Assembly: GCA_951406725.2 (NCBI GenBank)
Contig: OX597814.1
Coordinates: forward strand, 8,494,001-8,558,000
Reading direction: 5' to 3'
Source: Octopus vulgaris
Lineage: Eukaryota
DNA: 64,000 nt
The translations under genes and the position numbers were made by a program. The notes beneath the pieces were generated by a model that made no database searches, was not told the origin of the DNA, and saw only the letters and a list, made by a program, of their open reading frames with translations. Shown in pieces: positions 32,959 through 63,975 of this stretch (the stretch's first letter is position 1; every line of letters starts with the position of its first letter).

Positions 32959-33237
32959 GTGAGTAAATAGATTCATGTAACTTATTTATTTAATTGTTAT
33001 TTCATTTCCAAATGAGGAATCATTAAAGTTAATTAAAACATTTTCTCAATCTAACTCAAACATTTTATTTCCTTCACATCTGATATCTTGAGTATATCTT
33101 TTGCTAACTTTAACAACCTCAAACTTACTACAGCCATTCTGTAGAGCCTTTCTTAACAACAATATCAACTGCAACAATGTATCTCTCTTCTCTCCATGGA
33201 ATGTTCCTTAGTTGTTTACCATTAATTACTTTTGTAG

Positions 33238-33465
33238 GTTGATGTCATCGTTAACAACACCAATAAAGAACTCCAGCTTAACAATGGTTCTATCTCCAAA
33301 TTTATTCTCAATGCTGCTGGTTCAGAGATACAAGATGAATGTAACCAGGAATATCCTCAAGGTATTTCTACATCTACAATAGCCATCACTAAAGGATATA
33401 ACCTCAACTGTGAGAATGTATTTCATCTGGTATTACCTAAATGGAATGAAAATTCCTCTGATTCA
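33238..33465 (+). CDS. Macro module copy 1, exon B (macro domain core)
   Basis: tttgtag| ... TCA|gtaagt; 228 nt; VDVIVNNTNKELQLNNGSISKFILNAAGSEIQDECNQEYPQGISTSTIAITKGYNLNCENVFHLVLPKWNENSSDS, PARP14 macro2/3-like. Missed by the ORF track. Confidence 0.92.
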
Positions 33466-34074
33466 GTAAGTATCAATCAAATGATATTGATTTATTGAAG
33501 CAGTTAATGTTTGAAGAGAACCTTATGCATGTTGTGTGAGAATCATAAAGCAAATGTCAGCATCCTGTTTAATATTTGTTCTTCCAAGTTATCATTGGAA
33601 GGAAGCAGAAGATATCGATGAACAGGACACTTTTATATATAAATAGAAGGAAAAAAGCCTCATGGCCTAACAACAGTTATGTGACTGATAAATAAGACTA
33701 TATTAAAACATATTTCTGTGTTTTACTCTCTGTATTGGTGAGTTTTTCTCTGTCATGGCACGAGCACTAGAGAGGTTGTCATGTCCTCAACAACACTAAA
33801 GACTCCTCTTGGGTCTGCATTGACTCTCTTCATTCACCAACCATTTTACACGGTGGATTGGGTCTGTTTTATTGTAGCAGCATCATGAGTGAGGTTGCCT
33901 TGTCCCTTGCAGGACTAAAGAGTGATAGGAATGACAGATGTGTTTAGAAGTGGTAGGAGTGAGAGGAGTTGTGAGAGGAGAATATATTTATTACAACTTA
34001 ATGGTTTCTTCCTGTAATAAGAAAGTAATTCAATAAAATGTTCATTATCAATTGCTAAACACTTATTTTTTTAG

Positions 34075-34299
34075 ATTCTGGCAAACTTGACTCAAATAAT
34101 AACCATTTGTCTGGAAAAGGCTGAGAGAATGGGAGCAAAAAGCCTGGCATTTCCTATATTAGGGGCTGAAATGAAATACCCCATAGAAAAACTACCTGGA
34201 ATTATGTATGAAGCAGTGAAAAACTACTCAGATCGAAATTCAAGCTGGATCAAAGATGTTTACTTTGTTGTTTTACCTCAAGACACAGAAATAGTAAAG
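34075..34299 (+). CDS. Macro module copy 1, exon C (macro C-terminal half)
   Basis: ttttttag| ... AAG|gttggt; 225 nt; ILANLTQIITICLEKAERMGAKSLAFPILGAEMKYP...IKDVYFVV carries the SIAFP-type motif. Confidence 0.92.
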
Positions 34300-34332
34300 G
34301 TTGGTTGATGTTTTTGTTGGTTGTTGTTTTAT

Positions 34333-34900
34333 GATCATCATCATCATCATCATCATTATTTAACATCCATTGTCCAAACTGGCATGGGTTGAACTGTTTA
34401 ACCAGTGCTGGCAAACTGAGGGGTTGCACCAGGCTCCGGTCTAATTTGCCATGGTTTCTATGGCTGGATGCCTTTCCTAACACCAATCATTCTGAGAATG
34501 TAATGGGTGCTTCTTATGTGCCACTGGCATGGATGCCACTTACATGACACTGGCAACTGCCAGTTTGCCTCTATGAGGCCCAACGCTTGAAAGATGCTTT
34601 TTACATGCCACCAGCATAGGGGCTAGTCACTTATGTGACACTGACAATGGCTACAACTATGAATTCGCTTGGCTTGACGGCTCTTCTCAAGCATGGCATA
34701 TCACAAAAGGTCTCGGTCACTAGTCATCTGTGAGGCCCAATGTTTGAAGATTATGCTTCACATCTTGTCCCTTGTCTTTCTGGATCTTCCATTTCCACAG
34801 CTTCAATCCACAGGTACTTCTTCACACAGCTGTCCACATCCATACACATCACATGACCATACCAGCACAGTTGTCGCTCTTGCACACCACATCTGATGCT
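34333..34900 (-). mobile_element. RTE LINE 3' fragment
   Basis: (CAT)n tail plus the shared tail motifs and RTE C-terminal remnants. Confidence 0.65.
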
Positions 34901-36579
34901 TGTCCAACTTTTCAATCAATACATTTACACTCTGTCTTACATTTTTGGAAGTTACCAAAGGAAATATTCTGCAATAAATAAAGAAAATAGAAACAAAAAT
35001 ATGGAATCAGTTTTGTAAATTTATTTGTTGGTGTCTTAGAATTCTTCAGTTGGAATGTTGGAATCTTTGATGTTTCTCATGGCCCTGTCTTCCATACTTT
35101 TAGGTTAGCTTGGTTTTCTTCAACTCTTCCATTCCATGATTTAATTCTTTGTAACTTGATATGGATTCAGTGTAGCTACCTCCACCACCACCACTACCAC
35201 TACCTACCCACAACATCCTTCAACAATTCCATTTTGGTTACTGACCAACCAAAAATGTGTTAATGGCACCACCAGAACACTGATGGTTTTCTTTCATTTC
35301 TGTTCTTCAAAGTGGAACGCTTTGGAAACTCTTTCCACAATTCTTTCCATATTTCTTCCCACAGGAAACAATGGGGATTCTGTCAGTAATATAGAGGGGA
35401 GGATAGAGGGGTATGTCCAATAAGAGTATGAGGGGAGATGTTTAGAGATAGTGAGAGGACATTAGAGTGGCTGGGGGTGTGGTAGATATGTGAGGACATG
35501 GACAGTGTGCAGATAGGCGAGAGAGAGTGGAGGAGCCTACAGTGGGGTGGGGGAAAAGTTGGGTTGTGAGGGAGCTTGGTAGACAATAGAATTATGTGTG
35601 AGAGGTGGGTCATGTTTGTAAGGGACATGCCTATATGTATGGATGGTCACAATGTTACTTAGCTTATAAGATGAAATATAAAAAAAGCATAAATAAAATA
35701 TAAGAATGAAAGAATACAGAACAGAGTGGGTAATGTAGTCCTAGGTAGACTGCTTGTCTGATGGCCTCATCCTGTTCTTTGACTGACTTATTGTGTCCTA
35801 TATTTGCTCTGTCATGATTACCTGCCTCACAGAATACAACAACAACAACAACACGGGGAATACAACAAAAAGCTTTGTAGACAGTGAGCAGATGTGGTTA
35901 CCATTTGTCAGACAGGTTTTTCAACAGCTTGTTCAAACTGTGTCCTGGATTAAGCATAGACCAAGGCAGGGTACCTGCCACCTAGAGTATCTTCAGGTTC
36001 CCATAGGCCTCTGTCAGTTGGGCAATGTGGACAGTGGAAGTTCCACTCTAGCATTATATAGAGGATTACTGGCAGATAAGTACGACGTTCTTGAGGAGAC
36101 TCTGGACATCAATGAGAAGGATCTGTCCCAGAATGTTAGAATGTCCCTTTTACATTATATCACTTTCACATTATCTTCTTGCATTCCATACAGTCTTACA
36201 ATTTCCCCTTTCATTTTGGAGTACTTGGTCATTTTTTCAACCTCTTCTCTCACAACATTCATGTCATTTGGTATGGCTACATCAATGATCTGACTTATTC
36301 AAACTCCAAAGAATCCCTCTCAACACATGGCTATAATGCTTCCCCACTACTTCTGCTCATGATCAGAGATTCATATATCATCAGCCACTAAGAGACATGC
36401 TCAACTGGTTAAGGTCAAACAACTGTGGTATTGAGCAGAATATTTGCTGTAGCCCATCTTTTATACCAGGACAAAACAATGTACATGATAACACTTCCAA
36501 TCAGTTAAGATCATAAGCCATGAGAGCCACTGCTTGGTATTGCATTGTGGCACTGTATTACCATTATTATTATTATTCA

Positions 36580-39500
36580 TATTTTACCTTCATAACACAG
36601 TGTAGGTAAACTACACTGGAATATTTACTCATCTGTCAAGTCACAACAAGGACCTCAGACAGATAATACTTTCCTTAAGATGTGCGCTGTGCCCATTAAG
36701 GCTGCTTTTTTGCAAGACATCAATCTTGCATGGGATTTCCTGTTGCCTAAAGAAGTCTTGAAGTTTCAATGGGATTGAGCCCAACGCTCCGATCACCACT
36801 GGTATCGCTTTTACATTACCCTCTCGCATTCCATACAGTCTTACCATTTCCCCTTTCAATTTGGAGTACTTGGTAATTTTTTCAACCTCTTCTCTCACAA
36901 CATCCATGTCATTTGGTATGGCTACATCAATGATCTGACAGTATTTCTCTCTTTTATTCAATATGACAATATCCGGCCGACGGTGTTCAATTACACGATC
37001 CGTCTGAAAATCATAGTCCCAGAGAATCGTTACTTTTCCATCCTCCTGCATAACTTTTTTTGGTACAACTCATACCAGTTCTTTGTTACTTCATATTGGT
37101 ATTTATGGCATAAGGGCCAATGAAGATACTCACTCACTTTATCGTAACGGTGCTTGTATTCTTTTTGTGCAAGGCTCTCTCAGCCACTTCACCAAGTCAG
37201 TCACATTTTCCATACTCTTTCCATAGAGTCTGCATTTCTGAGTGTCAGAAGTTTTATAGATGTTATACTTAACTAAATTGGTAACAAGGCCTGGTCTTGT
37301 GCAGCAAGATCAGGTTTTCATTGGTATACTTCAAATCACCTCGCTCAAGCCATACTTACGATGCTGTATAATCCTTAAAGTCTTGTGTATTCCTTTCAAA
37401 CTGTCCATGCATTCTCATTTCAAGAAGGTCTTCTTTTCTATTCTCCTCGGCTCTTTGGTTAAACTCTTCCTTGCCCATCATTTCATCTGCATTTACCTCC
37501 ATATCTTTTGCAGCATATTGCAGCAGGTCTTCATTACAATTCATCAAATACTCAGCAATCGTTCTCCTTTCACTCCTTATACAATAGTCTATACTAATTA
37601 GTCCTCTGCCACCATTCTTCGTTTTCATGTACAGTCTGTTTACATTTGCTTTAGGTTGTAGCGCCCCATGCAGCGTCCTCAGCTTTCTCGCCCTTCTATC
37701 CAGTGTTGATATTTCCTCCTTAGTCCATTTGAGGATGGACACACTATATCTGACCACCACAACTGCTCAGATATTCATTGTAGTAATCAAAATTTTGGCA
37801 TTCAGATTGGATTTCAACACCATCTTCACCCTTTTTTGATACGCCTCACTGACCTTGACTTTCATTTCTCTGTGTAGAATGTCATCCAGCTCCAAAGTCC
37901 CTAAATATCTATACCCATTACCACCATCGGGTTCACCCATGGTCTCTCCTAATGGTAACTGCAATCCTCTGCCGGCTGCTTTCTTCCCACTTTTCATATT
38001 AAGTACTGAGCATTTGGTAATCTCAAATACCATACCGATGTTTCTACCACACTTCTGGACTGTTTTGGTTAAGAAATCTATCTGTTTTTCAGATTTCCCA
38101 AACAATTTCAGGTCATCCATAAACAGAAGATGGTTCAATGATGGGCCTTTCTTCCCACATTGGTAACCCCTCTTAACATTCCTAAGTGTCATTGTTATGG
38201 GAATGAGTGCAATTACAGAAAGTAACGCCTTGGAAGTTTCCCCTTTTGATATTAACTTCTCCAAGGAATACATTACTTGACTACAATTTGGTTTCCCACT
38301 CTTTCATGCTATGCATCAGAAAATTTGTGATGTTGTCAGCAACGCCAAACATCTGCAGGCATTCAACGATCCAAGAACGAGGCATCATATCATATGCCTT
38401 CTTAAAGTCAATCCAAGCCACAGACATGTTTGTATGCTGTTTTTTACAATGCCTCAGAACTGTTTTATCGATGACCAGGTGATCCTTGGTACCCTGAGAA
38501 CTCTTCTTACATCCTTTTTGTTCCCTTGGTAGTATTTCTTCCTGTGCTAGGAAGTGTATGTCTTTGCCACACACATTCCAGTGAGTATCTTCCAGATTAT
38601 GTTTAGGCATGCTAAGGGATGGTACTTTCCCTACAATATTCCCCTTTCTTCTCTCTTTTGTTACAAGTGTTCTCCTCCCAGTCACCATCTCCATGGGAAC
38701 TATACCTTTCTGGACACACTCATTCAATTTGGCTATTAGTCTTTCATGCACCACGTGGCATCTTTTCAGCCAGAAGCCATGAATCCCATCTAGTCTGGGG
38801 GCTTTCCAGTTAGGCACTTTACCCACTTGTTCTTCCACACCACCCATGCTTATGACAATATTCCTTTGTTTCTTTCTTCCTTGTAATTCTTTCTTGATAG
38901 TTCCTATCCTCATTTCATCCCTTTTATGCATCACATTGTTCCCCCATAATCTGCTCCAGAACTCCTTGGTTTGGTTTGCATCAGGAGCCACATTTTCTCC
39001 ATTGCCTCTTTCTGATGTTTGGAAGAATTGCTTCAGATTATTTTTGAACAATCTGTTCTCCTCAAACTGCTTATTTCTGTTCACAAATCTGTTGATCTTC
39101 TGGCTTTTTGCCATGATCCTCTGTTTTAATTATTCTATTATCAAACCCATTCTTCCGTATTTCATATTTCTTCTCTAATTTTTCTCAGTCGGTTTTATTC
39201 TCATTTTTCCAGTTTCCTCTTAACCATTGCTTAATTTTTCCTAGATCTTGCCTTGTCAGCATTATGTTCCTTTCAATGTGTTGTTTCTACCATTGTTCTT
39301 TTGCTCCACCACTTTTTGTTCTCTTAAGTTGTAATTTCTCCTCAACAAGTAGTGCAATAGCTCAGAGAAGATTCCTAGTTTGCGTCATGTCCTCCGTCTT
39401 GATGTACAGTATGACAGTATTTACCTTTTGTGTTACTTTATTTATCATTCTTCCATCTACCTTTCTCATGTTCATGGGAATGTTTTCTTCTGGAGCATTG

Positions 39501-40070
39501 ATCAGGTTGGTGAGTCGTCTTTGAATTTCAAGCAATTCATTATCTAGTTGGTTCATTTCCCCTGCGTGTGCACCCACCACAGCGTCAGGGTTTACTCTAC
39601 AACATTCCCATTCCTCATCCTTAACAGCTCCATCACCATTCTCCTGTTCCTCCTGTCTACTCTTCTCTCTGATTTCAATTCCTACATCTTTCAACTCTGA
39701 CCATCCTTTGAAGCCTATCTGCTGGGTCTCTCAAACTCTCACTTATCTGAGATATTTTTACTCCAGTTAAGTAACTCTTCCTCCTAATTACTCTCACGGG
39801 TTTCATTAGTTTATTTTCTGACTTTGGACGCATGTCCTTTTCCATCCAAAATTTCAAGGTCCATCACCCTACTCTGTGTCTTCTTTGCAGCTTTGCTCTT
39901 TCATGACATTCAATAAGTGTAAAATATTCTTCCTTCGTCCACTTATGTCTGTTTTCATGCACACCGTGTATATGATCTGTTGTGATCATCCGAGGCCAGA
40001 TCACTGCCCTTGATGCTAGTGGTTTCACACATGCCGGGCGGGAAACCTTCACCATAATTGGCTATAGCTT
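36580..40070 (-). mobile_element. Near full-length degenerate R4/Dong-like RLE non-LTR retrotransposon
   Basis: Frameshifted ORF pieces: RHKWTKEEY (N-terminus), AWIDFKKAYD and HLLFMDDLKL (RT), ILWDYDFQTD..RRPDIV..IIDVAIP..PVVIGALG (RLE). Confidence 0.9.
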
Positions 40071-40513
40071 CATTCTCACTTTTAATTCTTTCTTTGATGT
40101 GTTGCATCATGATTTCATGAGTCATTCATGGGTTACCTATGTGAGTTGTTATTGGGATCCCATCTCTCTCTTCCTCTATTTGTATATACACATACACATG
40201 TATGTATATACACATATATATATAAATAATGTGCTTGCATTGTATTGCCTCCATAATCACTGTGATTATCAGTACCCTCCCATCGTTCTACCCATAGCAT
40301 TTAAAATTATCAATTGTCCCAGTATATTGCAGAAGATCTTCATCACTATTTATCGAATATTCAGCAAGCGTTCTCCTTTCACTCCTTATACAATAGTCTA
40401 TACTAATTAGACCTCTGCCACCATTCTTTCTTTCCATATACAGTTTATTTATGCTTGCAGTTAACACTTATTAATATTATTGTTGTTGTTGTTGTTGTTA
40501 TTATTATTATTAA

Positions 40514-40561
<48 letters not shown>

Positions 40562-40562
<1 letters not shown>

Positions 40563-41905
40563 GGCTTTGCACAGCTTCAAACGCTGGAGACATACTACAA
40601 TATCAACTGTTCACTACCAGTGAACTAAGGTAACACCCCTTGTCTTTTGAGTACCATCAGGAGTATTCAAGGGGTTCCAAGCAGTGCTATTTTCTGCAAG
40701 TGTTCCACCCTTATTGCAGCTCCTATTTGTTCCATGTACTTCTCAAGATTTTTACTTACTCTTCCCAGGGCTCCATCAATTATTGGTATTACTGCTACCT
40801 TTTTCATCAAGCACAACTGCTTAACTTCCCAAGCTAACCTGTCATACCTCTCGACTTTTCTTTCTTCCTTATCACATACCTTGTCAGCTGGGCATGCTAT
40901 ATCTATGATCCAGCATAGTTTGCTTTCTTTCTCAATTAAGACTATGTCTGGCTTCCTATTCTCTGTCTCATGGTTGCACTGAATCATAAAATCCCACAGG
41001 ATCTTTGCATTATCATTTTTGATGATGCTTTCAGGTTTGTGATCATACAAATTTTTTGCTCTGGTCAAGTCCATACTTGTTGCAAAGTGTCCAATGGACA
41101 AGCCTGGCTATATTGTCATGGTGTCTCATATATTTCTTCTGGGCTGGTGGTGTACATTTGCTGGTAATATGTCATATGGCTTCACCATTTTGTCCACTAA
41201 TTTTGCACTTATCACTTTCTGATGTGTTGTCTATTCTGTATTTTATGTAGTTTGTCCTTAGTGCTTGCTCTTGAGCAGCACAGATTAGAGCCTCCGTTTC
41301 CGGTTTTAAATTACTTGTAATCATCCACGACCATCTTTTTTCTCTGTCTGTCTTATCTTCAGCATCCCTATGAAATTGACCATGCATTCTTTTCTTTACC
41401 TATTTTCAGTTTCATTCGTTTTCAATTTCTTGTATATGGTTTATCTTTGCAGTCTTTCATCCTACACAAGCCTGACCTTCTTACTTCTAATAATAGTGAT
41501 TCTGTTGCATTTTTCACATACCATGCTATGTTGTTTTCTTCTGCTCTAATGCTGTGCTCGCATCCAATAAGTCCTCTTCCCCCTCTTTTTCTTGCTACAT
41601 ACAGTCTATCTGTGTCACTTTTCAGGTTGAATATCCCATATCTAGTTAGCAACTTCCTTGTCTTTCTGCCTAAGCTGTTTAGTTCATCTACTGCCCAAAT
41701 TACTCCTGCTCTATATCTAAGGAGTGAAACTTCCCAGATATTGATAGCTTCAATCTTATTCCATTCGATTAATTTCGACTTAAGGATCAGACTCAGTCTG
41801 TGCAAGTACTCCTCCTTAAATGTTTCTGTCATTTCTTTCTCCATCAATTTATCCATTTCCAAAATCCCCAAGTACTTATAGCCCGTCTCTTCTATCTACT
41901 TCATA
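40562..41905 (-). mobile_element. R4-like 3' fragment between (TTA)n tracts
   Basis: ORFs 41422-41871, 41172-41387 and 40667-41101 (ILWDFMIQ..KPDIV..IIDIACP). Confidence 0.85.
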
Positions 41906-41909
41906 ACTA

Positions 41910-41959
<50 letters not shown>

Positions 41960-42312
41960 GCCTTTGCACAGCTTCTAACGCTAGAGATGTATTACAGTGT
42001 CAGCTGTTCACTACCAGTGAACTAAGGTAACACATCTTGTTTTTTGAGCACCTTCCAGAGTATTAAGGTGTCTCCAAGCACTGCTACTTTCTGCAAGTGC
42101 TCCACTCTTATTGCAGCCCCTATTTGTTCTACATACCTCACAAGATTTTTGCTCACTGTTCCCTGGGCTCTGACAATTATTGGTACTACTGCTACCTTTT
42201 TCATCAACCACAACTGCTTAACTTCCCAAGCTAACCTGTCATATCTCTCGACTTTTCTTTCTTCCTTATCGCATACCTTGTTGTCAGGTGGGCATGCTAT
42301 ATTTATGATCCA
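41960..42312 (-). mobile_element. R4-like 3' end, same family as 40562-41905
   Basis: Near-identical 3' end ctttgcacagcttctaacgct..ctaccagtgaactaaggtaacac after (TTA)n. Confidence 0.8.
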
Positions 42313-42349
42313 CCTTTTGTTGTTGTTGCTTCATGATAACTTTATTTCA

Positions 42350-43270
42350 GCTGCCTTAGTGGCGGGCATCCTTTAGAGACCAAGGGCAGCAAGGCCAATT
42401 TTGTTTTTCTGTGCATGCAAAACTTATCCTCACATTTATTCCATTTTAGATGGAGAGTGCTTTCTGTAGTGTATGGGCTGTACCCATCATGGTTATCTTT
42501 TATAGTTCACAGAGATTGGAGTTAGAAAGGAGTTGCTTTATATAATTCTCAGCTCCCTTCTTTATCATTCCCAAGGCACCAAATACTACTGGTATTATCG
42601 TAGAGCTAAGCTTTCACATTTTTGTGATTTCAATTTGCAGATCTTTACAGTGAGAAAGCTTTCCGTATTCCTTTCTTGAGACATTTTGATCTTGTGAGAC
42701 AGACATATCTATTAACAGACAAGTTCCCCTGTTGTTGTCCTTGATCACAGTGTCTGGTTGATTGGAGTCAATTTTTCTGTCTGTTTGTATAGGGAAGTTC
42801 CAGAGAATGGTGATGCCTTTGCCATTTACTACATCCTCTGGATGGTGCTTGTACAAATTATCATGGGATTTAATTTTGTAGGTATTTTAGAAGCATTCCG
42901 GTGCATGTACTGACCTAGTTTGTCATGTCTTATTGGGTTCTCCTTTTCACCGAGGACTGAGCAGCCAGAAACAGCATGATCAATTGTCTCTGTGAATTTT
43001 CCTCCAAATTCTGCACAAGGGGTCAGATCCATCTTTAAGGACATTTGCTTGGTAGGTAAGCTCTGATCTTGCTCTGCAATAGCAAAACCTTCTGTTTCCC
43101 CCTTTCAGACCTGTCCCTTGCAGCCATTGGCGTGTTAGATTTTGATCAATGTCTGGCTTGGACAGGTAGTTAGGGTATTTTCCATGCAGGAGTTTACCCT
43201 TCCAGTTGTCTTCCATGTTATTCATGCAAGCCTTCTTTGCTTTTTGTTTGATGTCTTTTGCATCACTGAA
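42350..43270 (-). mobile_element. R4-like 3' fragment (different subfamily)
   Basis: HGKYP..QWLQGTGLK; ILWNFPIQTD..LLIDMSV. Confidence 0.75.
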
Positions 43271-44299
43271 CCTATATCAAGATAATTAAAAGTAATAGCA
43301 ACAGAAGCAGTATTAATACCAAGAGGCAATCTTTATATCCAACTAAATGTGGATGTTGTATTAGAACATCAAATACTGCCTTTTTACCTTGAGAGGACCT
43401 CTCATATGGATGCACGGTCCATAAAAGCATGCAAATTTATATTGTTGGTAGACAACAATCATCTGCTACAGGCACCAGAACTGCCAGATCATGTATTTTC
43501 GCTCTACTCAGTTTCATCAGTGACAGACGCCCTGTAGCAGCATAACAGCCAAATCTCCCTGTCAACGATATATAGACAGTGATGTCACAAATAGCCTGAA
43601 GGCTTATTAAAGATAATTAATAGCAACAGAAGCAGTGTTAATACCAAAAGGCAGTCTTTATGTCCATATGCTGTAATGAAGAAATAGGGGAAATTCCTGT
43701 CCACTGTAGAACTGTTTGTGAAGTTCTTTCTTTTTGAATCTTTTCTCTTTTCCTTTGTCATCTCTCTTATGAATGACCATGATCCTAATTGTTGGACCTC
43801 CTCCACCTCCTCCTTCTTGCTTACAATATGAAAATAATTACCTTGTTCTCTGCTTTTGTTCCTCAAATATTCTTGGCTACACAAGATGCACCAAAGAACC
43901 TCAACTTCAACATTCTTGATAGACATTTCAACAGCAAACACAAGACTCAGCAGTTTTAATCAGAATGGTGAGTGGAGAGAAGAAACAATACAACTTCAGC
44001 TACATGAAGACACCATGGCCACATGTTTAACTTCACTAACACCACATCAGTGGTCACAGTGGAAGGTTCTTCTGCCACATCCACTATAATACCATGTCTC
44101 CCAGTAGACTGGAAGGTCGTGGATGGAATATCTTTGATCTGAGTGACAAAGTAATTTTCCTCATTTACTTATTACTGATTAGAAAGAAATCATTAAATAT
44201 TTCAAATATTTTGTTTGTCTTTTGTTAAATTAAATCTCTTCTCTTTAAAAAAAGCAAAAAATTAAACAAAAATGATTCTCATTGTTTTGATTTTTACAG

Positions 44300-44354
44300 A
44301 AATTTGATGAATATCTCCTAAATAAACCAGTAAATGAAGGAGTTCATTCAAAAG
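44300..44354 (+). CDS. Macro module copy 1, exon D (55 nt, final helix/linker)
   Basis: tttttacag|AAATTTGATGAATAT...TCAAAAG|gtaaac; KFDEYLLNKPVNEGVHSK. Its phase (0 to 1) bridges exon C (ends phase 0) and exon A copy 2 (starts phase 1). Confidence 0.75.
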
Positions 44355-44413
44355 GTAAACAATTTGCTTCTTGATATTGAATGTTATGGTGTCTTCTCTA
44401 TTAAACATCACTG

Positions 44414-44480
44414 ATTATTATTACTAATATTATTGTTATTATTATTATTATTATTATCATTATTATTATTATTATTATTA

Positions 44481-44550
<70 letters not shown>

Positions 44551-52760: not shown

Positions 52761-52801
<41 letters not shown>

Positions 52802-53258
52802 GCCTTTGCACAGCTTCTAACGCTGGAGATGTACTACGGTGTCAGCTGTTCACTACCAGTGAACTAAGGTAACACCCCTTATTTTTCGAGCACCATCTAG
52901 AGTATTCGAGTGGGTCCAAGTAGTGCTGTTTTCTGCAAGTGCTCCATCCTTATTGCAGCCCCTATTTGTTCCATGTACTTCTTGAGATTTTTAATCACTT
53001 TTCCCTGGGCTCCAACAATTATTAGTACCATTACCACCTTTTTCATCGACCACAACTGCTTAACTTCCCAAGCTAACCTGTCATATCTCTCGACTTTTCT
53101 TTCTTCCTTATCGCATACCTTGTTGTCAGCACTGTTTGCTTTTTCTCTCGATTAAGACTATGTCTGGCTTCCTATTCTCTGTCTCATGGTCACACTGAAT
53201 CATAAAATCCCACAGGATCATTGCATTATCATTTGCGATGATGCCTTCGGGTTTATAG
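52802..53258 (-). mobile_element. R4-like 3' end (family of 40562 and 41960) after (TTA)n
   Basis: Near-identical 3' sequence; ILWDFMIQCD..KPDIV. Confidence 0.8.
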
Positions 53259-53289
53259 TCGTCATCATCATCATCATCATCATCATCAT

Positions 53290-53512
53290 CAACATTACGG
53301 CAGTGACCTGGCAGAATTGTTAGCATCTTGGGGAAAGTGCTCTCTGGCATTTCGTCTGTCTTTATGTTCTGAGTTCAAATTCCACTGAGGTCAACTTCAC
53401 CCCTCATCCTATTGGGATCGAAAAAATTTAGTACCAGTGACACACTGGGGTCAATGTAATTGACTTATTCCATTCCCCCAAATTTCTAGACTTCTGCCAA
53501 AATTTGTAATCG
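53290..53512 (+). mobile_element. SINE whose 3' half is homologous to the 115-bp satellite unit
   Basis: agtaccagtgacacactggggtcaatgtaattgactta..aattt..tgccaaaatttg aligns with the satellite unit. Confidence 0.7.
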
Positions 53513-53959
53513 TCGTTGTTATTGTTATCGACCTATATTGCACATTGCTCCATAAGTTTTGTTGTTATTCATATTGTTACACATCGTACATTTGTTATCA
53601 TTACTTGATTAAAAAAAACCAGGACCTTGGGGACTGGTTAGTTTTCCCACATCTGTAGGCTTTAGGGGCCATTCTGGTAATCTTTTGGGCTAAAAAACAA
53701 GGGTGGGGAACGAGAATTGTTCATCCATTGAAAAGAAGAGCTGGTCCCCCAGAAGAGAGAACAGCCAAGTCTTACAAGCAACAACAACATCAACAATAGT
53801 GCATGTGAGGCCTAGGAAAGCGATTTTGCCTTGCTTCTGTCATCCCATTTCACCATCACAGGAACAAAAGAAATTAATGAGAAAAAGTGACAACAACAGC
53901 GAGAAAACAGCTGCCATGCTGGTGGCAGCTGCAGCAGCAGGTTTGCCAGTACCACTGCC

Positions 53960-54270
53960 AACATCATCATCATCATCGTTTAACATCTGTTTTCTAAGCA
54001 TGCATGGATTGGACAGTTGACAGGAGCCGGCAAGGTGGAAAATAACTACCCTTCGCTACTGTGTCTGTTTTGGCAGGAATTTTACAGCTGGATGCACTTC
54101 CTAACACCAACCACTCAGCAGAGTGGACTCAGTACATTTTACGTGGAACTAGCACAACAAAGTTAGTTTTGGCATTATTTTTGCAGCTAGATGCCCTTCC
54201 AAATGCAAGCCATTTCACAGTGTGCAGTGGATGCTTTTTACATGGCACCAGTGCTGGCAGGGTCACCAAG
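53960..54270 (-). mobile_element. SINE/RTE tail fragment
   Basis: (CAT)n plus tttaacatctg..cagctggatgcacttcctaacacc. Confidence 0.55.
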
Positions 54271-54714
54271 ATAATGAATTATGAGAGGGGCAAGAGGAGA
54301 GCTTGTGTCAGATGATAAAAGGTTAGAGTGTGACAGAGAGGCAGAAACAGGGGTCTTGCCATAACAGAGAGGGCATTGGAGGAGGTGTGCACAAAGTGAT
54401 AAATCTCTTCTGCACACTCTCATTCACTTCCCAACCATTCTTTCCTTCGTAAAGATCATCCCACTGCTTTCCTTTAACTGGGAAGGGCAGGCTGTGTTTC
54501 TTTGTCTGGTGCAAAAGAAGTTGTGTGGTGGACTAAGTTGAAAAGGCTTGAAGATTGAAATTTTCCTTTTCAGCCAAGCTCTCATCAATTTGTTCAAGTT
54601 TCACTTGGAAAGGAAAGTGAGGATAGAGAAGGAAGTACTGCATTCCAGTGATTTTGTTAAGAAGTGAGTGAATGTAGTGCAAATGACCTGAGTGAATCAG
54701 CCTACACTATGGCT

Positions 54715-56500
54715 ACGATCCATCTGAAAATCATAGTCCCAGAGTATCGTTACTTTTCCATCCTCCTGCATAACTTTTTTGGTACAACTCATACCAGTTC
54801 TTTGTTACTTCATATTGGTATTTATGGCATAAGGGCCAATGAAGATACTCACTCACTTTATCGTAACGGTGCTTGTATTCTTTTTGTGCAAGGCTCTCTC
54901 AGCCACTTCACCAAGTCAGTCACATTTTCCATACTCTTTCCATAGAGTCTGCATTTCTGAGTGTCAGAAGTTTTATAGATGTTATACTTAACTAAATTGG
55001 TAACAAGGCCTGGTCTTGTGCAGCAAGATCAGGTTTTCATTTGTATACTTCAAATCACCTCGCTCAAGCCATACTTACGATGCTGTATAATCCTTAAAGT
55101 CTTGTGTATTCCTTTCAAACTGTCCATGCATTCTCATTTCAAGAAGGTCTTCTTTTCTATTCTCCTCGGCTCTTTGGTTAAACTCTTCCTTGCCCATCAT
55201 TTCAGCTGCATTTACCTCCATATCTTTCGCGGCATATTGCTGCAGGTCTTCATTACAATTCATCAAATACTCAGCAATCATTCTCCTTTCACTCCTTATA
55301 CAATAGTCTATACTAATTAGTCCTCTGCCACCATTCTTCGTTTTCATGTACAGTCTGTTTACATTTGCTTTAGGTTGTAGCGCCCCATGCAGCGTCCTCA
55401 GCTTTCTCGCCCTTCTATCCAGTGTTGATATTTCCTCCTTAGTCCATTTGAGGATGGACGCACTATATCTGACCACCACAACTGCTCAGATATTCATTGT
55501 AGTAATCAAAATTTTGGCATTCAGATTGGATTTCAACACCATCTTCACCCTTTTTTGATACGCCTCACTGACCTTGACTTTCATTTCTCTGTGTAGAATG
55601 TCATCCAGCTCCAAAGTCCCTAAATATCTATACCCATTACCACCATCGGGTTCACCCATGGTCTCTCCTAATGGTAACTGCAATCCTCTGCCGGCTGCTT
55701 TCTTCCCACTTTTCATATTAAGTACTGAGCATTTGGTAATCTCAAATACCATACCGATGTTTCTACCACACTTCTGGACTGTTTTGGTTAAGAAATCTAT
55801 CTGTTTTTCAGATTTCCCAAACAATTTCAGGTCATCCATAAACTGAAGATGGTTCAATGATGGGCCTTTCTTCCCACATTGGTAACCCATCTTAACATTC
55901 CTAAGTGTCATTGTTATGGGAATGAGTGCAATTACAGAAAGTAACGCCTTGGAAGTTTCCCCTTTTAATATTAACTTCTCCAAGGAATACATTACTTGAC
56001 TACAATTTGGTTTCCCACTCTTTCATGCTATGCATCAGAAAATTTGTGATGTTGTCAGCAACGCCAAACATCTGCAGGCATTCAACGATCCAAGAACGAG
56101 GCATCATATCATATGCCTTCTTAAAGTCAATCCAAGCCACAGACATGTTTGTATGCTGTTTTTTACAATGCCTCAGAACTGTTTTATCGATGACCAGGTG
56201 ATCCTTGGTACCCTGAGAACTCTTCTTACATCCTTTTTGTTCCCTTGGTAGTATTTCTTCCTGTGCTAGGAAAGTGTATGTCTTTGCCACACACATTCCA
56301 GTGAGTATCTTCCAGATTATGTTTAGGCATGCTAAGGGATGGTACTTTCCCTACAATATTCCCCTTTCTTCTCTCTTTTGTTACAAGTGTTCTCCTCCCA
56401 GTCACCATCCCCATACCTTTCGGGATATGCTCATTCAATTGGGCTGCTAGTCTTTCATTCACTGTGTGGCATCTCTTCAACCAGAAGCCATGAATCCCCT
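54715..56500 (-). mobile_element. R4-like segment almost identical to 36995-38790
   Basis: The same broken ORFs recur at an offset of about 17,719 nt (37356/55075, 37767/55486). Confidence 0.9.
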
Positions 56501-56529
56501 CTTTAAGTTATCATATTATTATTATTCAT

Positions 56530-59400
56530 ATAAACTCAACAGGTTAGACTGTTGGAAAAGAAAAGAATCCTCATTTTGGGCTACAACGAGTGGCCTTACA
56601 TGCCAAGAACCCTCCTAAGTACAATAGTTCTCCCTAATAATACTATTTTGTGCAGCTGTACTAAACTGGGTTTATGCCTATTGTATCACTTTCCTCTTTA
56701 TTTGCCTACCCTACATTGGGAATCTGCTTGTTTTTTTTCTATTTGAATTTTATTCAATTAGTTCTTAATGCTTGATCTTGAGCAGCTACTGACAAACTTT
56801 CTGTCTCCTTCTTGAGATTTCCTTTCTGCTAGCATAACCATTTTGCACTACTACTACTTGCTCCAGCTCTCTCTGAGAATCTACCATGCAAAGCCTTCTC
56901 CTGCCACTCAGATAATTTCTATTCTTTTTTTCTGGTTTTAAACTTCGTTTTGATGTTTTGCTTTGCCTTTGTCATGCTGTGACTCGAGCAGCTCTTAGTA
57001 AATTTTCTTCCTTATTACCTACAGATGAGTGTATATCTACTCTAGCTAAATCCACACTGTCTACAACTGATATTAACCTCCTTCATTTCTAGTTAGGTAC
57101 AATCTTGCTACTCCTGCCCTTGGGTGGAATCCTCCATTCATATTGAATTCCTTCCTACTTCTTCTGCTTAGCTTTACTAATTCAGTTTTTGTCCAATCTA
57201 CAAAAGCTGCCGAGTATCTAAGTAAGGATACTGCCCAAGTATTTACAGCCTTCACTAGATTCAGACCAGTTAGCTTTGACTTCATTAACTTCCTCTCACC
57301 CTTCTGATGTACTCCTTTTCAATTTTCCTTTTCATTTCTATAGTTAGTTCCCTGTCAGATTCTAATACTCTTAGATACTTATAACACTCTCCTCCTTTCA
57401 ATGATTTCAATGTCTGGCCAATTGGTAATTGGATGCCTTCGCTGTTGACTACCTGTCCCTTTTCATCATGACTAATATTGCACCCTTATCTATGCCAAAT
57501 TCCATGCCTGTATCTTTGCTCAAGAATCTTACATTTTTTCATTCTTACTAAAAAGCTTCTGATCATCCATGTAGAGCAAATGGTTAATTTTTCCCTTACT
57601 ATTTCTGAACTCATATCTGGCCTCTTTCCTTCCTTAATACTTAACTGGGGAGGGATCAAACATAAGACAAAATATTAAGGGGTACAACGACTCCCTCTGG
57701 AAAATTCCTCTTTTGATATTAACTTTTCCTAAGAGTGTGTCACCTGAGCAGAGATCTACTTTCCATTCCTTCATGCTGAAGCTAATTAATTCTCTTTTGT
57801 TGTCTGCAATTACTGAATATACTCAAACATCCACTTAGCCATGAGTGTGGGATCATGTCATAGGCTTTCTTATAATCTATCCATGCTATTCTTAGATTTT
57901 TCTTTCTAGCTTTTACTTCGTTTAGAAATGCTTTGTCTCTATATAATGGATCATGTGTTCCTCTAGACTTCTTCCTGCAACCTTTTTGTTCTTCTGGCAA
58001 TAAACTCTGGTTGTGAAGGTGCTTGTAAATGCTTTCTGAAAGCATTCCTGTTAACAGCTTCCGCACTAATGGTAAACAAGTGATTGGTCTATAATTGCTA
58101 GCTGTATTACCCTTGCTCTTATCCTTCATAATGAGTATTGTCCTCCTTCTTGTCGTCCAATCTGGTATTATTCATCCATTAAGGCAATCCTCAAATTATT
58201 CCCTCAGCAGCCCATGAATTTCTTTAATTAGGACCCTTCGACTAAATCTGGTCCTGAGCCCTTCCAATTTGGCATTTTTCCTAACACTTTATTCAATGAT
58301 TCACTAGTTAGTATTAGATTTGGCTGCCTCTCAGTCAAATCTAGTTTTTCCCTCACTTCTTTTAATCATACTGCATCTCGATTATGATTGACTGACTCAT
58401 CCTAAATATTATTCCAGAACTTTCTCACTTCTTCTGCATTAGGTTTCTCATCTTCAGTACTTCCTTCTCCATTAATTATCTGGTTATAAAATTTCCTCAG
58501 ATCTGTCTTAAATATTCTATTCTGTTGATACTGATCTATTCTTTTCTGATATCTGGAAAGCTTGCCTGCTACTGCTATGACACACGGTTTCAACTTTTCT
58601 ATTACTGCCCCAAATCCTTTCTCTTTGACTAAGTACCTTTTCTCAAGGAAAGATTTGCATCTTGTGTTTCCTATCTTGTTCATTTTCCAGGCTTCTATTC
58701 TACTCAGATCTTGTCTTAAGGTCTTCACTTTATTTTGTAGTCTCCTTTTCCACATTTGCTCTTTTCTAGTCTTTCCCTGTGAGATATCTAATCTTCTGGT
58801 CACTACAACCCTTTCTGCATAGATCAGTAAATTTTTGTCTCCTATATATTTAGTATCCATCCTGCTGATAACAGAGTCTACTTTCCTAGTCATTTCTAGC
58901 AGCTTCTGTCTGTTGGTGCCTTTTAATATTGCTAATCTTTTTCTTACTTCTTCACTCATTACTTCCTGTAACTTATCTAAAACCTTCTGATCTTTCTCAC
59001 TTAAATCACTTAAGTCAATGGTGCCAGTTGTCCCTTCCTTATTGGTAGAACTATTGTTATTTTTCCCTTTAGGTTCTTCTTTGCTTTGAGATGTATCTCT
59101 TATCTTGCTGTTTCTACTTCCCGTTGCCTGATCTTGTGTTCTTTTGTTGGGTATCGGCTTTCTATGACACATGTTTTTGTTCATATTGTTGTGTATTTAC
59201 AGTATGACTTTATTCTTGTATGTTTTTCCATTTCCTAGCATTTATCATTATCTGTCTGCCTTTCTTTTTCTTTTTTCTTTGTTGGCTTAGTTATGGGTTC
59301 CTTCTTTGCAGCATTTACCTTTTTTCACTGAACCCTGCCGATAGTTGATGTGTTGATGTTTCTTTTACAGTTATAATTATTTTTGATGTATCTGTGAGAA
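56530..59400 (-). mobile_element. Degenerate R4/Dong-like retrotransposon (another subfamily)
   Basis: ORFs 58402-59184, 57782-58129 (NYRPITCL, AWIDYKKAYD) and 57073-57285. Confidence 0.85.
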
Positions 59401-59442
59401 ACTAAGAAGAAATAGGAATGTGCATATACATATAGAGGTCTT

Positions 59443-59465
59443 GTCTCTCTCTCTCTCTCTATTTA

Positions 59466-59518
<53 letters not shown>
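59443..59518. repeat. (CT)n(AT)n microsatellite
   Basis: Seen directly in the sequence. Confidence 0.9.
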
Positions 59519-59521
<3 letters not shown>

Positions 59522-59834
59522 TGTATAATGTAATTAAAATCTTAAATTTTACTCACAGGTTTGCAGTTTTATGCACATGCTGTAGCAGTGTTTTTGGGGG
59601 AGCTATACTTTTGTATATATATATATGCTCCATATAAGCAAAATCTGTCTGTTTCCTGTTATGGTCCCATTATGACCTAGTTTTCTTTCATTGATTTTAT
59701 GCATTTTTAATTCCTCCTTCATGATGGTTTCAGTTTTAAGGAATCTTCCTGGTAGCTTGCTGTCACACATCCATGCTGTTTGCTATTCACTGCGGTCTGT
59801 TTCCATTTTATTGTTATTATTATTATCTCTTTAT

Positions 59835-60980
59835 CACAGGTTTTGTTGGAACTCCTAGAGTCTTGCATACATAGCAGGCTTACTACCTGCGACCTACGGT
59901 ACCATGCTATCCATTCTTTTCCTGATTATCCTGGCCATGCCACGGAGGCAAACCTTTTGTAAACATTTCTACTGGGCACTCTATTCCAATTTCCTTTATA
60001 TTTTCCTTGATGCCTTCCAAAAACGCCCCCAAGGACCCAATAACAATTGGTACTACCTTCACTTCCATCATTCCCATAGCCATGCTCTGATGATTATATA
60101 TATCTACCTTTTTTTACCTTCGTCCTTGATTATTCATAGGTCAAAGGGACATGCAACATTAACTATGTAGCACATGTGGTGCATCATGTCCACCACCACT
60201 GGGCCCAGTCCTTTTTTTATGCTTTAGTACCTGATCTATTTGGATTGAGAGGTCCCAGAAGATTTTACAAGTCTTCAACTCCCCCACTCTCTGAAGCTTA
60301 TACTCATCCCAAGTCTTGCTTCTCTCTAACCCCCACTTTTCATACAGTTTCCAATGTGGCACTTTCATTAATTATCATGTTGCCGCAATTTGTAGTGGCA
60401 CAATTTGGGCAAGTCTAGGGCATTCATTCATGATGTGCATAATGGTTTTGACCACTCTGTTACAGATGCGGCACAGCAAAGACACTTGCTCATTCCTAAG
60501 GTTCACCCTTTAATTCATGGCCAAAGTTTGGCCTTGCACTGCCAGTATGGTGCTGCTCTCGGCCTCTTTTTTTCAGTGTTCCTTTCTTCAGTCAATCCCA
60601 TTTAGGTTTTCCTGCAACTTCTGTTGTGGTTACATGCAAATCATTATGTGGTCCCTTCTTCACGTCCCTTTTGTACTTCTTTCATTGTTTTCCCTTTTTT
60701 CTCTCTGCTCTCAATACTCCCTCATTCCTAGCTGCCACTAGCAAGGTTTCCTTACTTTCGGCTAGGTATCTCGTCCCTTTTCCTCTCTTTGCTCTCATCG
60801 TGTCTAGGTGATCTGTGTCTGCACATGGATGATGGCTTCCATGCATCATCGTTATGAGCTTTCTTGCCTTCCTCTCCAACTCCTACTCTCTCCACTTCAG
60901 AATTCCAGCATATTGCCAAGTTCATTGCCAGAGTTATGTTTCTAGCATTTAGCTTTGAAACCAATATTTTTCTCACTCAC
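59835..60980 (-). mobile_element. R4-like 3' fragment
   Basis: KVPHWKLYEKWGL..KIFWDLSIQ; RKLITMMHGSHHP; related to 1545-2130 and 3020-3515. Confidence 0.7.
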
Positions 60981-63350
60981 CACATGCTGCCACAGCTAAG
61001 ACCACAGCCAGACATATTGAATTAGGGAAAATAAATTGTGCCTCTATAAAAGGCACTAACACCTCTGTGAACATGGCTTGGCCAATCAGATCAGCTGATG
61101 TATAACCAAGGGCAATGGAATCTTCCCATCAAATAGTCTGGTCAAATGGTTTTCAGAAACCATGTTGGGCATTATTAAAACTGCATTTTTAAACAGAATG
61201 AGCTCTGATACTACACAGATGTTCTCACTTTTCTTTTTCTGCTTAGAACAACCTAAAGTGCTTCTCAAAGCTGTGTCAGTCAGTTTTGTGAGAAGACATT
61301 TTCATTTTTTTCTGTTTAAATATTTTCCCAGTAATTATGAACTGTCTTTGTATTAATATTGAGCATATTATACAGTGAAAACTTGTATTTATTTCCGTTC
61401 AGTATCATTTGAATGTTACTTCAGCAAATAGAAGAACATGTGGAAATATGTGGGCATGACTAAAAGGTCCACTCAGAACCATATATAACAATCCCAAGAC
61501 CTCCTTTAAGGTCTATGAGAGAAAAATGCCACATACATGGCTACGCATGTATGATTGCCGAAGGAAAGTAATCTTTACTTCAATGGTAGCAGAAGGTGAA
61601 GTCTGTGCCTTGCCAAAAAGAGAACTTATATTTAAGAACTCTCACCACCCAGATGCTTAATTCAAACCCAAATTCCACTTTGCTGGCAGTTACTCCTCAC
61701 TCAGAGATTTTGGACAAGTGGCATAACCAATGATGGAATCCTCCTCTCTAATTGTCTCTTGCAATTAGAGATGTGGCACTTGCTGTCAGAAACCCATTGC
61801 CCTACTTCCATACTGGCCACTCTGATGAGCACAGTGTTAGATGATATCCTGTGCAAAACTGATTTGTAAGAATGGCTGAAATGGATTTATAATACTGTAT
61901 AGTTTTGATGGTAAATTACCTCCTCTATTAACAAATGTACGAATGCCTGTTTTCCTAGTTGAGGGTGTCTTACACTTATTTCTATATCATCATCATCATT
62001 ATTTAATGTCCATCAGTTTGACAAGATCTGGTAATCTCTAGATCTGTGTTAGGTTCCACACTCAGCTGGCTGGCTGAGTGCTGCTGGCTGGCTGAGTGCG
62101 GCTGGCTGAGTGTGGATGGCTGGCTGCCCTTCAAAATGCCTATCATTTTACAGTGTGGAGTGAAAGCTGCTTTTCTCATGGCACCAGCACTGGTGAGGTC
62201 ACTAAGTATCTTGCAAAACAAAGCAAAGAATGGAAAAGGATAAAAACCCCCAATGGAATTGGGGGGAGGGTGGCTTGTTGCCAGGGGTAGAAAGTCTAAA
62301 GTTTGCCAAAGGGTCAAGCACAGTTGTCTGGATATAGAGGGATTCATGGCCTCCTTATATTTATGCAAGGGTGCATGACAGTATCTAGAAGGGAGAAAGA
62401 TGGTGGTAATAGGGTGCAAGAGCATAGTCCCAAGTTACAAGAAGGGGAGTAGAAGGGAGACTGTGGATGAGGAAAGAAGGAATGGGAGGGTAATGGCATC
62501 AGAGTGTGAGATGAGAATGGCAGAGGTTAGAGATGGGGCTTGAGGTGGTTGTAGGAAGTGAGGAACAATGGTTTGAGGTGGAGTTGAGAGACTGACGGGG
62601 CTCGGAAAGGAGGAGGTGACAAGAAGTAGCATAGGAAGGGTGGAGAGCAGCAGAACCATCAATCTGTTGATAGATGAGGAGGAAGAGAGATGATGACCAG
62701 GATCTGACAGCAGAGGGAAAGCAAAAATGATGAACTGTGAAAGAGATGGGAGTCAGAGATACATGGGGGTGGCTGTAGTGAGTGGGGCCAGAAAACTGGA
62801 GGGAGTTTTAGCAATGGCTGTGAGAGGGTGTTGAGAATGATTGCAGATAGGATAAGTGTTCAACAGGAAACCTGGCAGAGTAAGGTGTAGCTAAGAGGGG
62901 TGGGTGGGAAAGATTAGGGAAGGGACAGAAAGGGATGATCGATGGAAGGGTGTATGGACAGAGATGATGATGCAAGTGAGGCGACTGGTATTAACGAAAG
63001 GGTATGGTCGGTATTGAATGCTCTCAAATGGTTACAGCAGTAAAGTAGGACCATAGTTAGAAGAGTATAATAGAGGGATGGGTGTTAGGAAGATGAGATG
63101 TGGTGAAGGGGATGCTTCACAGGGACAGATGTGGGTGTAGGGCCCAGCATGGACAGTTTTTGGACATGACTTTTGCTGTGACAAATGTGTCTTTATATAT
63201 CATTTTGTTCAACTTGGACCTGGATGGAATATGGACATTATATCATCATGGGGGGGGGGGGGTAATGATGATGTTGGTATATATATATATATATATGTGT
63301 GTGTATACCTATACACACACATACACACACTGATATTTGTTTATTTTCAG

Positions 63351-63466
63351 AAACCACAACATCAAAACAGGAATCATCCTCCATGGCACCAAGAACTAAT
63401 GTGGCATTGACAAAGAATCGTGGCATCAAAATACAACTAATGATTGATTCAATTTCTAATGCATCT
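63351..63466 (+). CDS. Macro module copy 2, exon A
   Basis: tttattttcag| ... TCT|gtgagt; ETTTSKQESSSMAPRTNVALTKNRGIKIQLMIDSISNAS; in-frame 21-nt deletion relative to copy 1. Confidence 0.85.
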
Positions 63467-63747
63467 GTGAGTAAATAGATTCACTTAACATATTTATATT
63501 TAATTGTTATTTCATTTCCAAATGAGGAATCATTACAGTTAATTAAAACATTTTCTCAATCTAACTCAAACATTTTATTTCCTTCACATCTGATATCTTG
63601 AGTATATCTTTTGCTAACTTTAACAACCTCAAACTTACTACAGCCATTCTGTAGAGCCTTTCTTAACAACAATATCAACTGCAACAATGTATCTCTCTTC
63701 TCTCCATGGACTGTTCCTTAGTTGTTTACCATTAATTACTTTTGTAG

Positions 63748-63975
63748 GTTGATGTCATCGTTAACAGCACCAATGAACGGCTCCAGCTTAACAAGGGTTC
63801 TATTTCCAATTCTATTCTCAATGCTGCTGGTTCACAGATACAATATGAATGTAACCAGAGATATCCTCAAGGTATTTCTACATCTAAAATAGCCATCACT
63901 AAAGGATATAACCTCAAATGTAAGAATGTATTTCATCTGGTATTACCTCTCTGGGATGAAAATTCCTCTGATTTA
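63748..63975 (+). CDS. Macro module copy 2, exon B
   Basis: tttgtag| ... TTA|gtaagt; 228 nt; VDVIVNSTNERLQLNKGSISNSILNAAGSQIQYECNQRYPQGISTSKIAITKGYNLKCKNVFHLVLPLWDENSSDL. Confidence 0.92.

Follow-up and report, generated by a model that had tools for sequence, protein, structure and literature searches.

Why should two copies of a protein domain differ more in their exons than in the introns that separate those exons? The question is raised by a 64,000-nucleotide stretch of the Octopus vulgaris genome (GenBank assembly GCA_951406725.2, contig OX597814.1, positions 8,494,001 to 8,558,000, forward strand; hereafter the window), which carries two copies of a macrodomain module made of exons A, B, and C, with exon C of module 2 lying beyond the window. 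The original prediction, made from the letters of the window, was that these exons diverge about five times more than their own intron, almost only by amino acid changes, and that they belong to a diversifying tandem macrodomain array. We consider it probable that the contrast arises because copies of the module exchange tracts of DNA, which evens out their introns, while diversifying selection keeps and reshuffles the exon variants, rather than because a fast clock of point mutation runs in the exons.

Exon and intron diversity in the window and across the family

The figures given for the window pair hold when they are recounted. The exon B copies differ at 21 of 228 nucleotides (nt) in 16 codons, 15 of which change the amino acid and one of which (ATC/ATT) is purely silent; six of the changes fall within codons 7-22, and both copies are stop-free with intact AG/GT splice ends. 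The intron A-B copies differ by 5 substitutions and a 2-nt indel in approximately 280 nt, and the exon A copies differ at 18 of 116 nt, with nine amino acid changes and a 21-nt in-frame deletion. The excess in exon B over the intron (21/228 versus 5/280) is beyond chance (Fisher p = 1.8e-4). As a description of this pair, "almost only amino acid changes" is apt for 15 of the 16 changed codons, but the proportions of replacement (pN, 0.105) and silent (pS, 0.048) differences are not significantly different from one another (p = 0.26).

A genome search places the window modules in a family of about 17 PARP14-like genes and 51 modules. Exon B gave 51 matches among 62 candidates and exon C gave 51 among 55, with no stop codon in the matched parts, and the search also found 17 catalytic last exons, 23 large exons, and 19 middle exons of macrodomain 1; all of these counts are lower bounds. 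Contig C1 carries four clusters of the family and contig C29 a fifth, with 1-7 modules ahead of each catalytic exon and several gene pairs arranged tail to tail. Exon B is full length with AG/GT ends in 50 of the 51 modules, and a late frameshift is present in exon C of one module. The chimeric copy L052 was left out of the exon B statistics and the twins L002 and L021 out of most statistics, and the core sets of 30-33 copies exclude copies with other intron types or broken exons. In L052 (G000:C1:9314060), intron A-B is gone and the beginning of exon A continues in frame into codon 11 of exon B.

Across the family, nucleotide diversity (pi) is 0.039 and 0.029 for the two internal introns, compared with 0.18 for exon A, 0.105 for exon B, and 0.116 for exon C, and exon divergence exceeds intron divergence in 434 of the 435 pairs formed by 30 core copies. 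Thus, the exon excess is real, but the fivefold ratio belongs to its upper tail: the median ratio of exon B to intron divergence is 2.67, only 5% of the 435 pairs reach 5.1, and the window pair is within that top 5%. Relative to an expectation calibrated on the introns, replacement alleles are in 4.3-fold excess in exon A, 2.8-fold in exon B, and 2.4-fold in exon C. Exon B fits the originally predicted picture most closely of the three exons. Among its common alleles, replacement alleles stand at 4.2 times expectation versus 1.9 times for silent alleles, and four-fold degenerate sites in its conserved codons have an intron-like pi of 0.044.

An artefact of assembly, with introns collapsed or exons mis-polished among repeats, could in principle produce such a contrast, and two features of the locus point in that direction: a twin of the window gene 0.97 Mb away is 99.2-99.7% identical and may be a duplicated haplotype, and a splice acceptor has been lost from the window gene at a long tandem array. 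We nevertheless judge this explanation extremely improbable, given that the introns are all distinct (pi 0.03-0.04), that 49 of the 50 full-length exon B peptides are distinct, and that proteins labelled Octopus sinensis carry the same alleles. Exons B and C of module 2 of the window gene recur unchanged in an O. sinensis protein, an indication that the tandem array is no assembly collapse.

Probable exchange among copies and selection on exon B

Linkage between variable sites falls from an r2 of 0.23 to 0.09 within 20-40 bp (permutation p = 0.0005), and the distances of neighbouring segments are nearly uncorrelated among the core copies; the minimum number of recombination events (Rm) of 91 is inflated by recurrent mutation. 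Internal introns are 3-5% apart in copies whose 900 bp of collinear flank differs by 15-23% (L045/L046 and L017/L045), and the first half of exon B is 11% apart in a pair of copies with flanks only 0-6% apart (L033/L049); some of the high-divergence flank matches may be repeats, and global alignment was used to check continuity in the two upstream cases. Intron divergence is 0.034 within genes and 0.041 between clusters. The introns, alike despite diverged flanks, must postdate at least some duplications, a sign of continuing exchange among the copies.

The exon alleles are old, shared between Octopus species, and arranged as patchworks. Of 22 O. sinensis exon B peptides, four have an exact counterpart in this genome, that of module 2 of the window gene among them. 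Differences between O. sinensis peptides and their nearest copy number 143; in 122 of these the O. sinensis residue occurs in some other copy, and 72 affect the 18 exon B codons that are identified as selected below. One exon B of O. bimaculoides is identical to L045 at 67 of 76 positions, where the within-genome median is 60 of 76. In Argonauta, two modules of the protein P0024 share 162 of 170 residues, a further and separate instance of tandem copies that have been homogenised.

If the modules were instead young duplicates, with 2-4% intron divergence recording their age, their exons would have been driven apart by rapid point substitution in the manner of toxin genes. This would account for the exon excess, for the high rate of replacement at some codons, and for the near-identical flanks of some copies. 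It is highly unlikely and largely refuted by flanks that are 15-23% apart or unalignable where the internal introns are 3-5% apart, by module 2 exons B and C that are unchanged between two species, by an O. bimaculoides exon B that is closer to one copy than the median among copies, and by differences that consist of shared alleles in patchwork. The exon-intron contrast probably comes largely from homogenisation of the introns, with long-lived exon alleles being retained and shuffled. We also considered selection for unlike modules within one protein and rejected it, since the exon B distance is smaller within genes (0.082) than between clusters (0.109).

Diversifying selection, which the original prediction expected to find in these exons, is detected in exon B. 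With a site model custom-written for this analysis, M2a gives a ratio of replacement to silent substitution rates (omega) of 4.9 on 27% of codons, with twice the log-likelihood difference (2dL) at 147 and 18 sites having a posterior probability above 0.9. This test is prone to inflation by recombination: simulations of neutral evolution over shuffled genealogies reach a 2dL of 111 at most, so the nominal p-values of the site model were set aside, and none of 23 simulations reached the observed 143.5. In a count that does not depend on a tree, the four most variable exon B codons have 32 amino acid states, compared with simulated means of 19-22, and this number was reached in 0/491, 0/541, and 0/532 simulations under three nulls (0/1564 overall). 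The replacement share of exon B was reached in 0/491 and 15/532 simulations under two of the nulls. Within the same exon, 25 invariant codons lie beside codons with up to 10 states. The site-specific signal in exon B thus survives simulations in which recombination is the null.

As predicted, the variable sites are concentrated in the loop that follows the DVIVN motif. When selected sites are placed from secondary structure and alignment, loop 1, which has 10 residues, contains six of the 18 in exon B, grouped about an invariant glycine, and loop 2 contains one of the four in exon C. Selection is not, however, specific to the macrodomain: tests on 14 copies of the catalytic last exon (omega 1.5) and on parts of the large exon in 18 copies also gave a signal, with no recombination control in either case and with 3 of 17 catalytic exons and 5 of 23 large exons left out. 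This gene-wide signal is in line with that reported for primate PARP14 (PMC4038475).

In the mechanism that we propose, short DNA tracts would be exchanged among the 51 modules, by what the statistics suggest is gene conversion or unequal exchange, and neutral sequence would thereby be evened out. Diversifying selection at about 18 exon B codons would retain many amino acid alleles together with linked silent sites, and further exchange would recombine these alleles into new modules and new arrays.

A number of observations weigh against this mechanism. Silent alleles are also in excess of the intron expectation, by 3.2-fold in exon A, 2.2-fold in exon B, and 3.7-fold in exon C, where they exceed replacement alleles, so that the claim of almost only amino acid changes fails as a rule for the family. 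Four-fold sites in conserved exon C codons have a pi of 0.19, and only about half of the 15 common silent sites in exon C are tightly linked to a nearby replacement site. Across whole exons, the ratio of replacement to silent diversity (piN/piS) is 1.3-1.6 for exon B, with intervals touching 1, and 0.6-0.7 for exon C; the high silent diversity of exon C is a residue that exchange with selection leaves unexplained. Site tests over more copies bear out the prediction for exon B and not for exons A and C, whose 2dL values of 24 and 20 lie inside the recombination-only range of the exon B simulations, and selection on these two exons is not proven. With a fully neutral null, 201 of 541 simulations attain the replacement share of exon B; the variable sites track those of 140 distant homologues (Spearman 0.52), as relaxed constraint also predicts, and exon A is broken or missing in 6 of the 51 modules. 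Finally, a 115-bp tandem array in the window gene replaces the native acceptor and the first 23 nt of its large exon, both of which the twin keeps. The AG now present does not keep the reading frame, and only a weak cryptic site would allow splicing in frame. The window copy may be truncated, inactive, or mis-assembled at this site, and the family result is independent of it.

The silent excess of 2-3.7 times the intron level, the correlation with deep homologues, the broken modules, and the fit of the replacement share to full neutrality would all be expected if there were no diversifying selection, with the module surface drifting under relaxed constraint and the contrast reflecting either faster mutation of the exons or constrained introns. 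We regard this as unlikely. All 12 substitution types are raised in the exons, with no CpG or A-to-G signature, and deaminase-type or CpG hypermutation, including edited-RNA templating, was rejected on that spectrum. Structured RNA in the introns was rejected as well: eight Rfam matches over positions 32500-34500 of the window are all far below their gathering scores and lie mostly on microsatellites, and intron B-C is replaced or interrupted in 15 of the 51 copies. The invariant codons beside 10-state codons, a four-codon state count that no simulation reached, and the intron-like four-fold sites of conserved exon B codons also argue against an absence of selection. Exon-only import from a diverged paralogue was examined as a source of the silent diversity in exon C and is not supported, since L101 carries the minor allele at 16 of 79 common sites, with no enrichment, in a comparison in which the 3' third of L101 is out of register.

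Predicted function and proposed source of selection

The macrodomain identity of the exons is confirmed. Pfam Macro matches both window exon B copies above its cut-off, the best solved-structure match of the module by sequence is PARP14 macrodomain 2, and the top four Foldseek matches for a model of the O. bimaculoides module P0030 are entries containing PARP14 macrodomain 2, with a root-mean-square deviation (rmsd) of 1.5-1.8 Å. The cephalopod origin is borne out as well: two protein searches returned 13 and 20 matches, labelled O. vulgaris or O. sinensis and mostly PARP14-like, and two O. vulgaris proteins have exon B peptides identical to genome copies (P0040 to L027 and P0029 to L020). The modules are indeed in tandem, with two matched by Pfam Macro ahead of the catalytic domain in the window gene, but they are not a stand-alone array; they belong to a family of full PARP14-like transferases. 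The C-terminal ADP-ribosyltransferase of the window gene has the H and the Y, and an I aligned to the L of PARP15, an H-Y-(I/L) triad being the rule for such domains; Pfam PARP is above cut-off in P0012. At the N-terminus, RRM_PARP14 is above cut-off in P0012 and P0007 and weaker on the window exon, and the position of the KH array is held by a 490-codon exon without any Pfam match. The window gene does not have the canonical PARP14 layout: macrodomain 1 is present only as a stub, macrodomain-2-like modules are repeated, no macrodomain 3-type module was found in it, and a Pfam scan for a WWE domain was blank in all four proteins scanned. Macrodomain 1 of the paralogues has NAAN and GIF motifs. 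At the large-exon ends of L094 and L095, the loop-1 motif is NATN...EGV rather than NAAN...GGV, and these two possibly lack hydrolase activity.

Hydrolytic macrodomains are described as having a hydrophobic and then an aromatic residue in loop 2, with Asn/Ser and Gly flanking loop 1 (PMC10221186). The octopus modules have the Asn and the Gly, but the aromatic position is L or M in all 44 aligned exon C copies. Given that loop 2 lacks the aromatic residue required for hydrolysis, the module is predicted to be a reader, as PARP14 macrodomain 2 is reported to be a non-hydrolytic ADP-ribose reader (PMC10499325). Judged by sequence, the modules would bind ADP-ribose rather than remove it. The glycine at exon B codon 17 is invariant in 48 copies, and we take the glycine of the module's SRG motif to correspond to the loop-1 glycine G1044 of PARP14 macrodomain 2. 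Loops 1 and 2 of macrodomains line the diphosphate and the distal ribose (PMC10802294).

A loop-2 glycine with 99% conservation among 140 distant domains is missing from 17 of the 51 modules, window module 1 included. The deletion occurs in none of the 17 modules nearest a catalytic exon versus 17 of the 34 others (Fisher p = 2.8e-4), an association that was noticed post hoc as the strongest among 82 common alleles, in copies that are not independent. Neighbouring exon C alleles show a weaker form of the same positional bias, and the O. sinensis model P0014 breaks the rule. The variant may be taken as a lead for a division of labour between modules, not as proof of one. One gene region (G000:C1:206631320-206736310) has seven consecutive modules, of which six carry the loop-2 deletion and the last is intact.

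By homology, each protein would be a mono-ADP-ribosyltransferase, brought to ADP-ribosylated targets by its array of modules, and variable residues on the pocket rim would shift either the choice of modified target or the antagonists that are evaded. Pathogens would be the most likely driver, a proposal made by analogy with vertebrate macro-PARPs; positive selection in primate macro-PARPs, which the original prediction invoked, is reported and linked to virus conflict (PMC4038475). More tentatively, we suggest a combinatorial innate-immune receptor family of approximately 50 reader copies exchangeable across 200 Mb and between chromosomes, in which the module adjacent to the transferase would keep a canonical pocket and the modules upstream, in half of which the pocket loop is shortened, would act as altered-specificity sensors or decoys.

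The same population-genetic regime might have an internal driver, such as transposon or RNA surveillance, germline conflict, or tissue-specific signalling, although this seems to us distinctly unlikely. Nucleic acids are among the substrates that RRM domains and macrodomains can act on (PMC10499325), literature searches found no infection data, and a PARP14-like protein reported in octopus skin mucus rose with aquarium keeping and not with wild exposure (PMC11431876). Known macro-PARPs, however, are reported to be interferon-induced and tied to virus conflict, balanced multi-allele repertoires are described as typical of recognition genes, and selection is gene-wide here as it is in primate PARP14.

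Comparison with known systems shows what is particular to this family. It resembles the macro-PARPs (PARP9, PARP14, and PARP15) in its order of RRM, large exon, macrodomain(s), and ADP-ribosyltransferase, in a module that folds on PARP14 macrodomain 2 with an rmsd of 1.5 Å, and in having selection in macrodomains and catalytic domain together with gene birth and loss (PMC4038475). Unlike ancestral PARP14, described with three distinct macrodomains (PMC10221186), the octopus family has macrodomain 1 (missing in the window gene) and 1-7 near-identical macrodomain-2-like modules. Its 17 catalytic exons compare with at least eight genes reported in a bat and four in lancelet, its variation lies between paralogues shuffled by exchange, and its selected sites include the pocket loops, whereas those of primate macro-PARPs are reported on surfaces apart from the ADP-ribose site (PMC4038475).

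Plant type I NLR genes (lettuce RGC2 type; Arabidopsis RPP8) are likewise chimeric paralogues with introns homogenised and coding sequence not, which is ascribed to diversifying selection after exchange (PMC3679737), and their silent diversity in the selected region is reported to lie above that of introns (10.1101/694240). In octopus we observe chimeric paralogues, homogenisation of introns only, and, for exon B, statistical evidence of diversifying selection. The likeness is one of sequence regime, as the proteins are unrelated and the shuffled unit in octopus is a 1.6-kb three-exon animal domain linked to an enzyme. Primate red/green opsins and the major histocompatibility complex (MHC) also show exon divergence peaking between converted introns and trans-species exon alleles (PMC3924837). 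The opsins involve two copies and two key sites, unlike the 51 copies and many multi-state sites of the octopus family. The MHC is mostly allelic, cell-surface, and vertebrate, unlike the octopus modules. Exon divergence exceeds intron divergence in conotoxin and snake venom phospholipase families too, but the octopus product is an intracellular multidomain enzyme, and old shared alleles explain most of the differences.

Cephalopods are not known to have antibodies, and few diversified immune receptors have been described in them. If our explanation is correct, the octopus, a farmed animal, would have in its resistance-gene-like PARP14 family a candidate for a recognition repertoire, and host-pathogen conflict over ADP-ribosylation would extend into molluscs. 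Approximately 50 natural variants of one macrodomain-2 scaffold would also permit a test of whether pocket-rim residues select the modified target; the physiological targets of PARP14 reader domains are described as not established (PMC13224862). Duplication of and selection on PARP14 are already known; the present scale, the amplification of a single module, the conversion regime, and the loop variant did not turn up in literature search listings. These searches, which covered few subscription papers, found no paper on this octopus PARP14 family.

Layout of the window gene and its surroundings

Homologous proteins mapped on the window and its neighbours yield one gene consisting of RRM exons, a large exon, module 1, a linker exon, module 2, and catalytic exons (Table 1). 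The later macrodomain 1 exons are missing; the macrodomain 1 stub has a 4-residue deletion, and its phase-1 donor suits exon A. The gene is chimeric relative to P0012, with 5' exons 69-81% identical and most 3' exons 97-100% identical.

Table 1. Features of the window gene (window positions unless a locus or contig is named)
Feature	Position	Strand	Evidence
RRM exon of PARP14-like gene	1243..1476	+	RRM_PARP14 Pfam matches under curated cut-off; tblastn with P0004/P0007/P0012; splice sites
Second RRM exon, upstream of window	L060:5246-5482
115-bp tandem array, 106.6 copies (98% matches), abuts large exon	10765..23016	.	Tandem Repeats Finder (TRF); compared with twin L079/L107
Large exon remnant at PARP14 KH-array position, ends in macrodomain 1 stub	23020..24490	+	Without Pfam match
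Truncated extra exon A copy, acceptor present, donor absent	32600..32729	+	Self-BLAST 85.7% to exon A
Module 1 exon A, linker and first macrodomain strand	32822..32958	+
Module 1 intron A-B, homogenised family-wide (pi 0.039, 50 copies)	32959..33237	+
Module 1 exon B, macrodomain N-terminal half including loop 1 (pi 0.105)	33238..33465	+
Module 1 intron B-C, homogenised (pi 0.029, 36 copies of this intron type)	33466..34074	+
Module 1 exon C, macrodomain C-terminal half, loop-2 glycine deletion variant	34075..34299	+
55-nt linker exon between modules, phase 0 to 1	44300..44354	+	tblastn with P0007/P0012; splice sites
Module 2 exon A, 21-nt in-frame deletion	63351..63466	+
Module 2 intron A-B	63467..63747	+
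Module 2 exon B	63748..63975	+
Module 2 exon C, loop-2 glycine intact, beyond window	G000:C1:8558587-8558814
Three catalytic-domain exons, beyond window	L042:3426-6622

The twin of the window gene (G000:C1:7549268-7603842; L056-L059, L079, L002, and L021), whose identity was measured over the 39 kb compared, may be a recent segmental duplication or a duplicated haplotype. At L079/L107 the twin is 99.6% identical to the window copy and retains the acceptor. Upstream of the 115-bp array, the twin ceases to match the window. The 115-bp unit is present in at least 23.5 copies in the twin and as one or two matches at 22 other large-exon loci, which suggests a short intronic repeat that has expanded in the window.

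Elsewhere in the genome, blocks of large exon and macrodomain 1 are repeated at G000:C1:216273286-216608150, neither a module nor a catalytic exon having been found behind three of the blocks, and P0001 and P0002 contain such repeats within one protein model. At G000:C29:31781488-31821270 there are three modules, with no large or catalytic exon found, and two of these are within 1-3% of copies at 9.37-9.38 Mb on C1.

Within the window, two 1.8-kb fragments that are 97.9% identical (36995-38791 and 54715-56502) lie in the inter-module introns and contain broken reverse-transcriptase-like frames on the minus strand, identified by eye as a long interspersed nuclear element (LINE). A 1.9-kb CT-rich minisatellite with a 22-bp unit occupies 3532-5425, and a degenerate open frame at 31420-31870 resembles, as judged by eye, a fragment of a mariner-type transposase. 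Beyond the window, a second family member faces the window gene in tail-to-tail orientation; its catalytic exons (L043:2374-5456; G000:C1:8578373-8581455) are on the minus strand, and its last exon is 98% identical to that of the window gene, above any paralogue but the twin.

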